NCBI RefSeq assembly: GCF_029227855.1
Contig: NZ_CP074356.1
Length of the DNA stretch: 64,000 nucleotides
Strand: one strand, 5' to 3'
Origin: Escherichia coli
Lineage (GTDB): Bacteria; Pseudomonadota; Gammaproteobacteria; Enterobacterales; Enterobacteriaceae
The position numbers and the translations under genes are program-made. Shown here in pieces: positions 47,052 through 62,634 of the stretch. How positions within the stretch are numbered: the first letter of the stretch is position 1; each line of letters starts with the position of its first letter. Under the pieces are notes generated by a model, which did no database searches, was not told the origin of the DNA, and worked only from the letters and a program-made list of their open reading frames with translations.

Positions 47052-48044
47052 ATGGTGAAATCGACGTCATGTATAACCATTGATTTCATGAATATGTCGC
47101 AGCTAACTGAACGGACCTTTACGCCATCTGAATCTCTCAGCAGCCTGTCACTTTTTCTTAGTCTGGCACGTGGACAGTGTCGGCCGGGTAAATTCTGGCA
47201 TCGCCGTAGTTTTCGCCAGAAATTTTTGCTGCGCTCGTTGATTATGCCGCGTTTAAGCGTTGAGTGGATGAACGAACTTTCCCACTGGCCCAATCTCAAT
47301 GTGTTGTTAACGCGCCAGCCGCGACTGCCTGTGCGTCTGCATCGCCCTTACCTTGCGGCGAATCTTAGCCGTAAGCAATTGCTGGAGGCGTTACGTTACC
47401 ATTATGCGTTACTCCGCGGGTGTATGTCGGCGGAAGAATTCAGCTTATATTTGAATACCCCTGGGCTGCAACTGGCGAAGCTGGAAGGCAAAAACGGCGA
47501 GCAGTTCACACTTGAGCTGACCATGATGATCTCAATGGATAAAGAAGGTGACAGCACAATCCTGTTCCGCAACAGCGAAGGTATTCCTCTGGCAGAGATC
47601 ACGTTTACCCTGTGTGAATATCAGGGGAAAAGAACAATGTTTATTGGCGGACTGCAAGGCGCAAAATGGGAAATTCCACATCAGGAAATCCAGAATGCGA
47701 CGAAAGCCTGCCACGGGCTATTTCCCAAACGCCTTGTGATGGAAGCGGCCTGTCTGTTTGCCCAACGTTTGCAGGTAGAGCAGATCATTGCCGTCAGCAA
47801 TGAAACACATATTTACCGCAGCCTGCGTTATCGCGATAAAGAAGGCAAGATCCATGCCGATTACAACGCTTTCTGGGAATCGGTTGGCGGCGTATGTGAT
47901 GCTGAACGCCATTACCGCCTTCCGGCACAGATAGCACGAAAAGAGATTGCCGAAATCGCCAGTAAAAAACGGGCTGAATACCGTCGGCGCTATGAGATGC
48001 TCGACGCTATTCAGCCACAAATGGCCACGATGTTTCGCGGTTAA
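47052..48044 (+). CDS. ybjX: VirK/YbjX-family protein (DUF535)
   Basis: 330-aa ORF in the position of ybjX, convergent with ybjD and overlapping its stop by 4 bp. The true start may be the downstream Met at 47091 (MNMSQLTERTF). Confidence 0.85.
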   Translation: MVKSTSCITIDFMNMSQLTERTFTPSESLSSLSLFLSLARGQCRPGKFWHRRSFRQKFLLRSLIMPRLSVEWMNELSHWPNLNVLLTRQPRLPVRLHRPYLAANLSRKQLLEALRYHYALLRGCMSAEEFSLYLNTPGLQLAKLEGKNGEQFTLELTMMISMDKEGDSTILFRNSEGIPLAEITFTLCEYQGKRTMFIGGLQGAKWEIPHQEIQNATKACHGLFPKRLVMEAACLFAQRLQVEQIIAVSNETHIYRSLRYRDKEGKIHADYNAFWESVGGVCDAERHYRLPAQIARKEIAEIASKKRAEYRRRYEMLDAIQPQMATMFRG

Positions 48045-49699
48045 TCCGCGCGACCGCGCGCCAGCCACAGCACGCGTGAGAACATTTTTTTCAGCAGCGT
48101 CGGTACGGAATCCACACCACGACGTCCTGCCTCCATTGCCACTTCAATGGCGAGATCGGGTTTGGAAGAGCGATGGATCGCTTTCGAGATAATTTTGCGC
48201 AGATTCATCGGTACATTTTCCGGGATTTGCGCCACGCGGTGGAACACATCGGAAAATCCCTGGCGATACATAAAATGTTCCATATCCAGCGCCGGTAACG
48301 CCGTTAAATGTTCTCGTTCGGCTTCCCGATCGTTATTCAACAGGCTGCGTACCGTAGCGGCATATTTCTTCCCTGCTTCATCGCCATCGACCAGTACATG
48401 CCATTCAATCCCCATTCGGCGGGCAAATTTAACCAGTGGCTTTAGCCCGGACTGGGCAAACTCAATGACCTTGATCCCTTCAGCATCAAAATGATGTCCG
48501 CACTGACGCGCCAGTTCATTGATAACCCAGGTTTCCGTTTCCCCTTCCACCAGCAGCCAGCAGCGTGCAAACAGCGATGACGGACGATTAAAACGAATGT
48601 GGAAAGAGATGCGTCGGCTATCTTCGGTACTCAAGCCACTCGGCCCCAGACGCCAGGCGGCAACGCGCGAGGACTCACGTACCAGTCGGCAAATATGCTC
48701 TACCGGCGTTAACGAAAGCAACTCACCCGAGTTGGTGGTGGCAATGCGCTGCAATGGCAGAAGATTCAACAGATGCCAGGCAACTGAAAGCATAATGGGG
48801 TGTAAACGGGTTTCTGGATCTTCGATCAGCAACAATGGACGGGCGTCTTTATCCAGTCGCAATGTGCCTTTTGCCTGCAATAAAGTAGCAAACAGGCCGA
48901 GCAAAATAACCCGATACGAGCGCCCTCCTGGTCGGTCAATCATCCGGTTGATGATATCCAGATAGCGCCAGCTTCGTTGCTCATTGCTGGCTCGCCGCCG
49001 CATTAAACGATATCGCGCCTGTCCGGCCCCCTGCTCAGAGAAATAATGCTCAAGCAGCTGTACCATTGCGGAAAGTCCCTGACGAATCTGCCCATCAGAG
49101 AGATTTTGCGGATGTGAGGATAGCTCACGGGCGAGGAAATCGAGCTGGCGCGCGGTGACTTCCACATTAGGGACATTTGGCACCGTGCCGTTACGAATAC
49201 GGCGCATAAAACGGGCATCACGCAAGCGCAGCACCGGCATTAAACGCACCAGATGGCGTGCCTGGTCGTTAATATCCTCGACATCAATCGGATGTCCGTC
49301 TTTATCGAGAAAACTGCGGAGTGTCATCACGCTGCCGTCTTCCGCACTCTCCCCTTCCAGACGATAAAAAATACGGTGATAGCCATCGGTGCATGGCGTC
49401 CAGCACGCTTCCAGCGGCCGATAGCGGCGAACCCGATGTCGGCCTGGCAGCGATTCGCGGAAGGTCAAAATAATATGCAGATGATGTTCTCGCCCGTTGA
49501 TATCTCCCGGCGGGAACCAGAAATCGTCGCGCTCAAAATGGTAGAGATCTGATTCTGGCGATAGCAGCAGAGTTAAGGCGTCCAGCAAGCTGGATTTACC
49601 CCACGCGTTCTCCCCAATCAGGACGTTGTTTTGTTCCAGCATCAACGACAAACGGTTGATACCGCGAAAACCCACAATTTCAACGCGCTCAAGAATCAT
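48041..49699 (-). CDS. ybjD: OLD-family (overcoming lysogenization defect) ATP-dependent endonuclease homolog YbjD: N-terminal ABC-type ATPase, C-terminal Toprim
   Basis: 552 aa with Walker A (GENAWGKSSLLDAL) at the N-terminus and a Toprim-like acidic C-terminal region (LLVEGETE); chromosomal position as in K-12. Confidence 0.88.
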   Translation of the reverse strand: MILERVEIVGFRGINRLSLMLEQNNVLIGENAWGKSSLLDALTLLLSPESDLYHFERDDFWFPPGDINGREHHLHIILTFRESLPGRHRVRRYRPLEACWTPCTDGYHRIFYRLEGESAEDGSVMTLRSFLDKDGHPIDVEDINDQARHLVRLMPVLRLRDARFMRRIRNGTVPNVPNVEVTARQLDFLARELSSHPQNLSDGQIRQGLSAMVQLLEHYFSEQGAGQARYRLMRRRASNEQRSWRYLDIINRMIDRPGGRSYRVILLGLFATLLQAKGTLRLDKDARPLLLIEDPETRLHPIMLSVAWHLLNLLPLQRIATTNSGELLSLTPVEHICRLVRESSRVAAWRLGPSGLSTEDSRRISFHIRFNRPSSLFARCWLLVEGETETWVINELARQCGHHFDAEGIKVIEFAQSGLKPLVKFARRMGIEWHVLVDGDEAGKKYAATVRSLLNNDREAEREHLTALPALDMEHFMYRQGFSDVFHRVAQIPENVPMNLRKIISKAIHRSSKPDLAIEVAMEAGRRGVDSVPTLLKKMFSRVLWLARGRAD

Positions 49700-50124
49700 A
49701 TCCCCTCCAGAAATATGTGACTTATCCTTTACGCTGGCAGTATAACGGGAAAGGCCATGCTAATACGTGATGACATCACATTTAAGCATGGCAAATGTCT
49801 GAAAAATGAGCGAATAATCGCGTTATACTCCCTCTTGCTGATAAGCCTGCAAAAACAACAAAATCAAATAATTAGCATGATAAATTATTTTTTATTACGC
49901 CTAAAGGATTAAATCTTTTGCTTGCACTACACTGTCAATCAGACAAATGACTATATGGGGCAACCCGCTGTTGCCCTAAATCAAATTTACTGGATTTATT
50001 TATCTGGTGAATGACTCGCCTTCGTTTTTAAAATAGCCGCGCATTATTTCCGTCGTCACTTTTTTACGACGACCCTATAAAACGACCATATTTTTCACAG
50101 GGTCAATTTTTAATTGAGGTGGAT

Positions 50125-60793: not shown

Positions 60794-61807
60794 ATGAAGG
60801 TACTGGTTACCGGCGCCACCAGCGGCTTAGGTCGAAACGCGGTAGAGTTTTTATGCCAGAAAGGCATCAGCGTGCGAGCGACCGGTCGCAACGAGGCAAT
60901 GGGTAAATTGCTGGAAAAAATGGGCGCAGAGTTTGTTCCGGCGGATCTGACCGAGCTGGTCTCATCACAAGCTAAAGTGATGCTCGCGGGCATTGATACG
61001 CTGTGGCACTGCTCCAGCTTTACCTCGCCCTGGGGGACACAACAGGCTTTCGATCTGGCTAACGTTCGCGCCACTCGCCGCCTGGGTGAATGGGCTGTCG
61101 CCTGGGGTGTGCGTAACTTTATTCATATCTCTTCCCCCTCCCTGTACTTCGATTATCACCACCATCGCGATATTAAAGAAGATTTTCGCCCTCACCGCTT
61201 TGCCAACGAGTTTGCCCGCAGCAAAGCAGCCAGCGAAGAAGTGATCAATATGCTTTCGCAGGCGAATCCACAAACGCGCTTTACTATTCTGCGCCCACAA
61301 AGTCTGTTCGGACCGCACGATAAAGTCTTTATCCCCCGTCTGGCGCATATGATGCACCACTACGGCAGCATTCTGTTACCGCACGGCGGCAGTGCGCTGG
61401 TCGATATGACCTACTATGAAAATGCCGTGCACGCCATGTGGCTGGCAAGCCAGGAAGCCTGCGATAAGCTACCTTCCGGGCGTGTGTACAACATCACCAA
61501 CGGCGAGCATCGCACACTGCGCAGCATCGTGCAGAAGCTAATCGACGAGTTGAATATTGACTGTCGTATTCGTTCCGTCCCCTACCCGATGCTGGATATG
61601 ATCGCCCGCAGCATGGAGCGTTTAGGCCGCAAGTCAGCAAAAGAGCCGCCGCTGACCCACTACGGCGTCTCCAAGTTGAATTTTGACTTTACGCTGGATA
61701 TTACGCGTGCGCAGGAAGAGTTAGGTTATCAACCAGTCCTCACCCTGGATGAAGGTATCGAGAAAACTGCCGCCTGGCTACGCGACCACGGAAAACTGCC
61801 GCGCTAA
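60794..61807 (+). CDS. ybjS: NAD-dependent epimerase/dehydratase-family protein YbjS
   Basis: Start trimmed to [20 protein letters not shown] (337 aa), SDR-type Rossmann motif. Confidence 0.88.
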
Positions 61808-62634
61808 TCCTGCCCGTATTTCTCCAGCAACGCTTCGGCAATCGCCTGAGTTTCTGCATCCGCTTCGCCGTTGTATAACGTCGGGCGGAAATGCATCTGG
61901 AACGCCATAATCACGCGCCGCTGCTCGCGCGGTGTCATATCAGGTTTAACGTCATAACCGTAGCGCGCCAAAAGCTCCAGCAATGATGCGGTATCTACCG
62001 GTGTGTGCGGCGCGCGCCCGGCAAGGTAAAAGTTCACCCGCTGCGCATCCGGCCAGGCACCAATCCCCTGCTGCGCCAGTTGTTGCCAGGGGAATAACGG
62101 CCCCGGATCGTCTTTGCGCTGCGGCGCAATATCCGCATGCGCCACTACGTTTTCCGGCTTGATGTGATAACGGGCAATAATATCTTTCGCCAGCGGAATA
62201 AGCGCCTGAATCTGTGCCTGTTCAAACGGGGCAAAATATTTCACTCCGGCTGATTTCTGCCAGCCACGGTTTTCCAGCTCAATGCCAATAGAGGTGTCGT
62301 TAAGGCGCGTTGCCCCGCGCCAGGCGCTAATCCCCGCATGCCAGGCCAGTTCCTGTTCCGGCACCAGTTGCCAGATGCGCGGTTTACCGTTGTATCGCGG
62401 TGGCACCGCAGGGACCAGATAATGCGAGCTGACCTGCTTGTCGGTCAGTGTCGCCAGCGAGCTATCAAAATCATCTGCGGTGTAGTGGATCACCAGCACT
62501 TTAATGCGCGGATACGCCGCCTGCGCCTGGCGTCGGGTATCAAGCTGATATCCCTCTTTCTCGACAATGCCTTTTTCGCCTGCACACCCTGCCAGTAACA
62601 GAGCGGCAGCGACCAGCCAGAAGACTCTTCTCAT
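61804..62634 (-). CDS. amiD: N-acetylmuramoyl-L-alanine amidase AmiD (lipoprotein, amidase_2 family)
   Basis: Signal/lipobox LLAGCAG, 276 aa; convergent 4-bp overlap with ybjS, overlaps the ybjQ stop. Confidence 0.93.

Follow-up and report, generated by a model that had tools for sequence, protein, structure and literature searches.

Four 4-bp gene overlaps in a 64-kb stretch of Escherichia coli DNA are probably ordinary compact junctions, with Rho likely ending transcription past the convergent stops

Four 4-bp gene overlaps lie in a 64,000-nucleotide (nt) stretch of Escherichia coli DNA, contig NZ_CP074356.1, referred to here as the window. Two are co-directional (macA/macB and ybjQ/amiD) and two are convergent (ybjX/ybjD and ybjS/amiD), the latter consisting of shared stop codons. 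We consider it likely that all four are ordinary, compact junctions belonging to the core genome of E. coli, the convergent ones arising as a by-product of stop-codon geometry with their transcription ended by Rho. Any regulatory consequence would then be an unselected or weak side effect. All four junctions are already known: they are annotated in RefSeq, the convergent pairs have been catalogued and Rho data on them are published. A preliminary description of the window had proposed translational coupling at the co-directional pairs, and read-through with potential mutual antisense regulation at the convergent ones.

The overlaps themselves proved to be exactly as described. They were confirmed by the list of open reading frames (ORFs), by the raw sequence and by RefSeq gene ends in strains JNEC-KY178 and MG1655, lying in the latter at 920347-920350, 918128-918131, 905740-905743 and 904913-904916. 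The range given in the preliminary description, which began at 48041, left out its own macA/macB overlap at 45822-45825. A 3-kb query at the first convergent junction matched JNEC-KY178 with 100% identity, and 5424 of 5426 complete genomes of E. coli matched it at 95% identity or more. MG1655 K-12 is collinear with the window in reverse orientation, with two exceptions specific to the strain: an insertion of the IS110 family, and the sequence from 63016 on, where the two diverge. For comparison between species we used 80 Enterobacteriaceae loci with flanks of at most 10 kb, all from one hcp-anchored scan, in which orthologues of seven genes were placed by tblastn and each extended to its stop codon.

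That one stop or start per pair was mis-called, and that the true genes do not overlap, is extremely improbable. Starts can differ by annotation: ybjX begins at 47088 in JNEC-KY178 and 36 nt earlier in K-12, at the equivalent of window position 47052. Long annotated overlaps are also often mispredictions (PMC10666635). However, the two convergent overlaps consist of stops alone, and a stop codon leaves no ambiguity. Because Pfam domains extend to the C-termini and the stop positions are common to dozens of species, the stops are genuine; homology extends to the very end of the proteins, in as many as 80 species. Pfam also bears out the identities of the genes. Among the start codons of the co-directional pairs, the macB ATG aligned at residue 1 in 69/69 loci and the amiD ATG in 31/49. 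The remaining 18 amiD alignments begin at residues 6-20 and their start was placed by back-extrapolation.

The number of overlaps in the window is no higher than chance. In a published tally for E. coli, 586 of the overlapping pairs are co-oriented and 75 are convergent (PMC4161906), which amounts to one convergent overlap in every 62 kb or so. The expectation for 64 kb is thus about 1.0 convergent and 8 co-oriented overlaps, against two of each observed, and the Poisson probability of at least two convergent overlaps is about 0.27. The four are all the overlaps among the roughly 50 annotated genes of the window. Co-directional genes in E. coli and 1,695 other prokaryotes are spaced at -4 or -1 far more often than at any other distance (PMC10666635).

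The form of the convergent overlaps probably follows from the stop codons themselves. On the opposite strand the stops TAA and TAG are read as YTA (Y, pyrimidine), and a purine (R) in the next position creates a TAR stop for the convergent gene, one base off register. At ybjX/ybjD this purine pairs with the third base of the last codon of ybjD, Asp (GAY). Column composition was compared across 45 aligned junctions with -4 spacing, 44 of them distinct in sequence. The ybjD side was invariant, encoding Ala (GCN), Asp (GAY) and a TAA or TAG stop, whilst the ybjX side was freely variable. Because ybjD ends with Asp (GAY)-TAR in all aligned -4 junctions, the ybjX frame always closes at -4. A YTAR overlap was found directly in 45 of 54 species and in 49 of 54 when four Kluyvera are counted. 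The variants among the 45 junctions were CTAA (21), TTAA (17), TTAG (4) and CTAG (3). The true exceptions are Buttiauxella (+3 and +13), strain LSJC7 (+25) and one Citrobacter (-12). In Kluyvera, ybjX and ybjD at first seemed to be separated by inserts of about 1130 nt. These were rejected as further exceptions, as each is a tandem second ybjX of which the ybjD-proximal copy still overlaps. In these four duplications (loci L005, L016, L025 and L029) the second ybjX encodes about 326 amino acids where intact and ends in a YTAA overlap; the L005 copy is seemingly disrupted, its longest ORF being 218 amino acids.

Species without ybjX were informative about the ybjD side. All 15 loci lacking ybjX in which the ybjD stop could be resolved also end ybjD with TAA or TAG, indicating that this ending is not an adaptation to ybjX. 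In 14 of the 15, macA lies 100-220 nt after ybjD on the same strand (L006, L012, L018, L019, L021, L032, L033, L036, L037, L042, L046, L063, L072 and L079); macA was not found in L027. Among the bacteria without ybjX are Klebsiella, Raoultella, Superficieibacter and Citrobacter koseri, so that ybjX varies in presence whilst its neighbours on either side, ybjD and macA, are conserved. In several such loci a GC-rich hairpin lies just 3' of the ybjD stop.

The ybjS/amiD overlap is far less widespread. A spacing of -4 was found in 20 of 56 species, belonging to Escherichia, Citrobacter, Salmonella and Klebsiella, with one Pluralibacter and one metagenome-assembled genome of an uncultured Raoultella (L073). 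Elsewhere the genes are 0-7 nt (15 species) or 22-2921 nt apart. The -4 state is confined to species in which amiD ends with TAA or TAG, and a TGA stop in amiD is confined to non-overlapping species. TGA cannot yield the overlap because the TCA that it forms on the opposite strand creates no stop. Both C-termini are unchanged, whilst the DNA between them has drifted from -4 to hundreds of nt; this overlap is one state, limited to certain clades, of a spacer that drifts. Taken together, the sequence comparisons suggest that geometry, conserved C-termini and spacer compaction explain the convergent overlaps; selection is thereby not needed, though possible.

We also considered how transcription ends at the convergent pairs. 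The preliminary description stated that the shared stops leave no room for terminators, and this holds: there is no intergenic DNA, and hence no dedicated terminator. RNA polymerase would continue onto the antisense strand of the neighbouring gene, producing untranslated RNA that Rho would end a few hundred nt in. Published bicyclomycin (BCM) data support this in three of the four directions. Adams et al. 2021 (PMC7815308, Supplementary file 2) applied DirectRNA-seq to BCM-treated and untreated cells to locate regions of Rho termination, and three such regions lie past the convergent stops, antisense to ybjD, amiD and ybjS (Table 1). Reads are quoted here as upstream/downstream of the listed K-12 position. 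In the ybjX read-through, at 917246(-), reads were 299/18 in untreated cells and 568/545 with BCM (Rho score 15.9, p = 6.9e-53). The corresponding values were 186/25 and 305/160 for ybjS read-through at 905089(-) (Rho score 3.9, p = 2.6e-10), and 65/26 and 31/53 for amiD read-through at 906118(+) (Rho score 4.27, p = 4.9e-6). Read-through into the antisense of the neighbour, as the preliminary description predicted, is thus backed by these regions and by the ExcludonFinder catalogue. The latter lists 165 convergent MG1655 pairs with transcript overlap in at least 50% of 58 RNA-seq samples, amiD-ybjS and ybjD-ybjX included (PMC12288877), although its criterion is trivially satisfied (at least 4 nt) where coding sequences overlap. 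We infer that the antisense RNAs are read-through from the upstream gene and do not come from internal antisense promoters.

Two of the read-through RNAs have the C-rich composition on which Rho is expected to load. The ybjX read-through is C-rich and G-poor, with C/G of 38/23 at offsets 0-50 and 28-33 versus 19-22 at offsets 200-500, and the ybjS read-through is C-rich (C 0.318, G 0.252). The ybjD read-through has no C-rich/G-poor bias.

Neither convergent boundary was found to carry a stable GC-rich hairpin with a U-tract, as expected of an intrinsic or bidirectional terminator, and no Rfam family matched at the junctions. Folds of 61 nt at both were unremarkable (z-scores -0.75 to +1.07). 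Intrinsic terminators embedded in the coding sequences were considered and rejected. The only candidates are weak hairpins followed by U residues at 48161-48189(+), 48005-47972(-), 61803-61769(-) and 61671-61643(-), and terminator-like motifs in the region are not in excess (28, against 22.3 ± 5.8 in shuffled sequences). The candidate at 61671-61643, a weak hairpin followed by UUUU, lies in the amiD read-through. The preliminary description had taken 3' ends inside the coding regions upstream of the overlaps as evidence that would speak against read-through. The names ybjX, ybjD, ybjS and amiD do not occur in the Term-seq tables of one dataset (Supplementary files 1 and 3; PMC7815308), which thus list no 3' ends in or beside these genes. 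The names are likewise absent from the SMRT-Cappable-seq supplements (PMC6131387).

Table 1. Genes, overlaps and read-through regions at the four junctions, in window coordinates.
Feature	Position	Strand	Basis or remarks
macA-macB operon	43879-46937	-	Pfam HlyD_D23, MacB_PCD, ABC_tran, FtsX
macB	43879-45825	-	RefSeq; ABC transporter of the macA-macB operon
macA/macB ATGA overlap (macA stop TGA, macB start ATG)	45822-45825	-	TCAT on the + strand
macA	45822-46937	-	RefSeq; membrane-fusion protein
ybjX (VirK/DUF535 family)	47088-48044	+	Pfam DUF535, residues 36-313 of 318
Palindrome CGCGG-TTAAT-CCGCG, E. coli-specific	48036-48050		Centred on the ybjX/ybjD stop overlap
ybjX/ybjD TTAA stop overlap (TAA on each strand)	48041-48044		Sequence and RefSeq
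ybjD (Class 1 OLD-family ATPase/TOPRIM nuclease)	48041-49699	-	Pfam DUF2813, OLD-like_TOPRIM
ybjX read-through, antisense to the ybjD 3' half	48045-48926	+	Rho region K-12 917246(-), 882 nt past the ybjX stop (PMC7815308)
ybjS (NAD-dependent epimerase/dehydratase family)	60794-61807	+	Pfam Epimerase, GDP_Man_Dehyd, residues 4-325 of 337
amiD read-through, antisense to the ybjS 3' end	61429-61803	-	Rho region K-12 906118(+), 375 nt past the amiD stop (PMC7815308)
ybjS/amiD CTAA stop overlap (ybjS TAA, amiD TAG)	61804-61807		Sequence and RefSeq
amiD (outer-membrane lipoprotein, N-acetylmuramoyl-L-alanine amidase)	61804-62634	-	RefSeq; Pfam Amidase_2
ybjS read-through, antisense to amiD	61808-62458	+	Rho region K-12 905089(-), 651 nt past the ybjS stop (PMC7815308)
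ybjQ/amiD ATGA overlap (ybjQ stop TGA, amiD start ATG)	62631-62634	-	Sequence and RefSeq
ybjQ (YbjQ_1 / UPF0145 family)	62631-62954	-	RefSeq, Pfam; upstream of amiD, same operon

Several observations weigh against an account based on geometry and Rho. A Rho region for ybjD read-through, antisense to ybjX, is not listed in PMC7815308, and the weak hairpin and U-run at 48005-47965(-) is the sole candidate for its end. The amiD read-through is not C-rich. Rho scores are calculated over 800-nt windows, making the listed positions approximate, and internal promoters, instead of read-through, could be the source of the antisense RNAs. The -4 spacing of ybjX/ybjD was kept in 49/54 species despite YbjX identities of 44-77%, which selection would predict likewise.

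The convergent pairs might instead be functional excludons, in which tail-to-tail overlap is maintained for repression of the partner, either because the polymerases collide or because RNase III cleaves the double-stranded 3' ends. Expression would then be mutually exclusive between ybjX and the OLD nuclease gene ybjD, and between ybjS and ybjQ-amiD. Both pairs are among the catalogued convergent excludons of MG1655, a class with higher synteny and less co-expression in single cells (PMC12288877), and ybjX read-through antisense to ybjD is abundant, at 299 reads in the 800 nt past the ybjX stop. The persistence of the ybjX/ybjD junction in 49/54 species would also fit. However, stop-codon geometry accounts for that persistence, coding-sequence overlap alone suffices for a place in the catalogue, and validation with the double-stranded RNA-binding p19 was unfeasible for convergent pairs according to its authors (PMC12288877). 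Rho curtails the antisense RNA, the spacing of ybjS/amiD is unconserved and ybjD ends in the same way in species without ybjX. Nor was synonymous-site constraint found: normalised codon entropy at conserved residues is flat along ybjD (0.63-0.77) and not lower in its 3' half, its profile has the same shape with and without ybjX, and synonymous diversity is also flat, with no dip, along amiD, ybjS and ybjX. This counts against a sequence-specific RNA function, whilst sequence-independent transcriptional interference would still be compatible with it. Literature searches found no evidence of pair-specific regulation for either convergent pair. Overall, we regard maintenance for partner repression as unlikely. 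Less likely still is a narrower proposal, that the ybjX/ybjD overlap was selected as a regulatory coupling in which Rho-limited antisense RNA from ybjX, running over the 3' half of ybjD, tunes YbjD, a stand-alone OLD-family anti-phage nuclease. If so, a loss of Rho activity, for example in phage infection or stress, would alter YbjD levels. Expression of ybjX is reportedly PhoPQ-dependent.

A palindrome lies exactly over the ybjX/ybjD stops (48036-48050), raising the very unlikely possibility of collision-driven bidirectional termination, in which a hairpin in both transcripts pauses the polymerases and brings about a mutual stop at the boundary. A head-on model with hairpin-positioned polymerases has been put forward for convergent E. 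coli genes (bioRxiv 10.1101/2022.10.23.513370). However, substantial, Rho-dependent read-through extends beyond the ybjX stop, and no Term-seq 3' ends are listed at the ybjX/ybjD boundary. The palindrome has a U-tract on neither strand, and its hairpin is no more stable than shuffled sequences (z-scores -0.75 and -0.48). A conserved hairpin here was also considered and rejected: there was no covariation, and pairing over the 44 distinct junction sequences was 0.405 against a shuffle mean of 0.41, the observed value being reached by 1236 of 2000 shuffles. No palindrome was found at ybjS/amiD. The same preprint ties higher termination efficiency to highly expressed pairs, whereas reads at these loci are modest.

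At the co-directional junctions the preliminary description had proposed translational coupling. Its structural part stands, as both ATGA overlaps have the classic termination-reinitiation geometry and keep it across the family; coupling itself is suggested by analogy. The macA/macB junction reads ATGA in 66 and GTGA in 3 of the 69 loci, and ybjQ/amiD reads ATGA in 41 loci and TGATG or TAATG (-1) in 8, so that 49/49 overlap. An AGGAG Shine-Dalgarno sequence lies within macA 7 nt upstream of the macB ATG, and a weak GGUGA precedes the amiD ATG at about 10 nt. A ribosome ending on the upstream gene could restart at the overlapping start codon. MacA and MacB form a heteromeric pump; we know of no complex of YbjQ with AmiD. 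Heteromeric complexes are enriched for such overlaps, and termination-reinitiation coupling has been shown experimentally for other E. coli pairs, fading within about 20 nt (PMC10666635).

Other features of the window were recorded. The IS110-family element spans 1384 bp (51052-52435) between aqpZ and lysO, at the K-12 breakpoint 915110/915111. Its transposase ORF (51325-52350, - strand) carries Pfam domains DEDD_Tnp_IS110 and Transposase_20 and has the RefSeq product name 'IS110 family RNA-guided transposase'. At the other strain-specific difference, similarity to K-12 stops at 63015 (K-12 904532) and 63016-64000 is divergent. Between ybjQ and ybjP, JNEC-KY178 has here a pentapeptide-repeat gene, about 1.8 kb long and frameshifted, that K-12 lacks. 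A third tight convergent junction joins a truncated pseudogene (16613-16723, + strand) to ycaM (16724-18154, - strand), 0 nt apart. Judged by position, the pseudogene is possibly a ycaN remnant; the ycaM-ycaN pair is likewise in the published excludon list (PMC12288877). Rfam returned a single CRISPR-DR4 match of 28 nt (39682-39709, - strand, 50.1 bits), which has the appearance of an orphan repeat and sits between a tRNA-Ser gene (39492-39576) and an IS200 copy adjoining clpA. The infA-clpA interval is the site of a type I-F array in some E. coli strains. There were also two small RNA matches, STnc490 (40439-40562, - strand, 144.6 bits), adjoining the IS200 tnpA, and STnc130 (24517-24651, + strand, 140.1 bits), between dmsA and serS.

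These junctions belong to an ordinary class: E. coli has about 660 gene pairs that overlap, and each convergent pair here is one of about 75. The comparative result illustrates how a -4 convergent overlap may persist through stop-codon geometry and conserved C-termini. The point of possible experimental worth is whether ybjX read-through modulates the OLD nuclease YbjD. A recent study characterised YbjD as belonging to the Class 1 OLD proteins and also remarked on its convergence with ybjX (PMC13261556).

Among known systems, macA/macB and ybjQ/amiD share the exact ATGA geometry of the -4 coupled pairs of Huber et al. 2023 (PMC10666635); a difference is the weak Shine-Dalgarno sequence of amiD. 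The convergent pairs amiD-ybjS and ybjD-ybjX are named entries with 3'-overlapping transcripts among the convergent excludons of MG1655 (Sanmartin et al., NAR 2025, PMC12288877). As a difference, their overlap begins in the coding sequences, at the shared stops, and not in 3' untranslated regions. With the overlapping bidirectional terminators of Ju et al. 2019, as set out in a preprint (bioRxiv 10.1101/2022.10.23.513370), ybjX/ybjD has in common a shared boundary and a small palindrome on the stops. It differs from those described there in its lack of flanking A/U tracts, mapped paired 3' ends and hairpin conservation, and in its Rho-sensitive read-through. The Rho suppression of antisense RNA reported by Adams et al. 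2021, in which 51.5% of Rho termination regions are antisense to genes (PMC7815308), is a further comparison. The window departs from that pattern in the unlisted region for ybjD read-through and in the absence of a C over G bias from amiD read-through, and matches it in three bicyclomycin-sensitive regions, each past the stop of the convergent partner.

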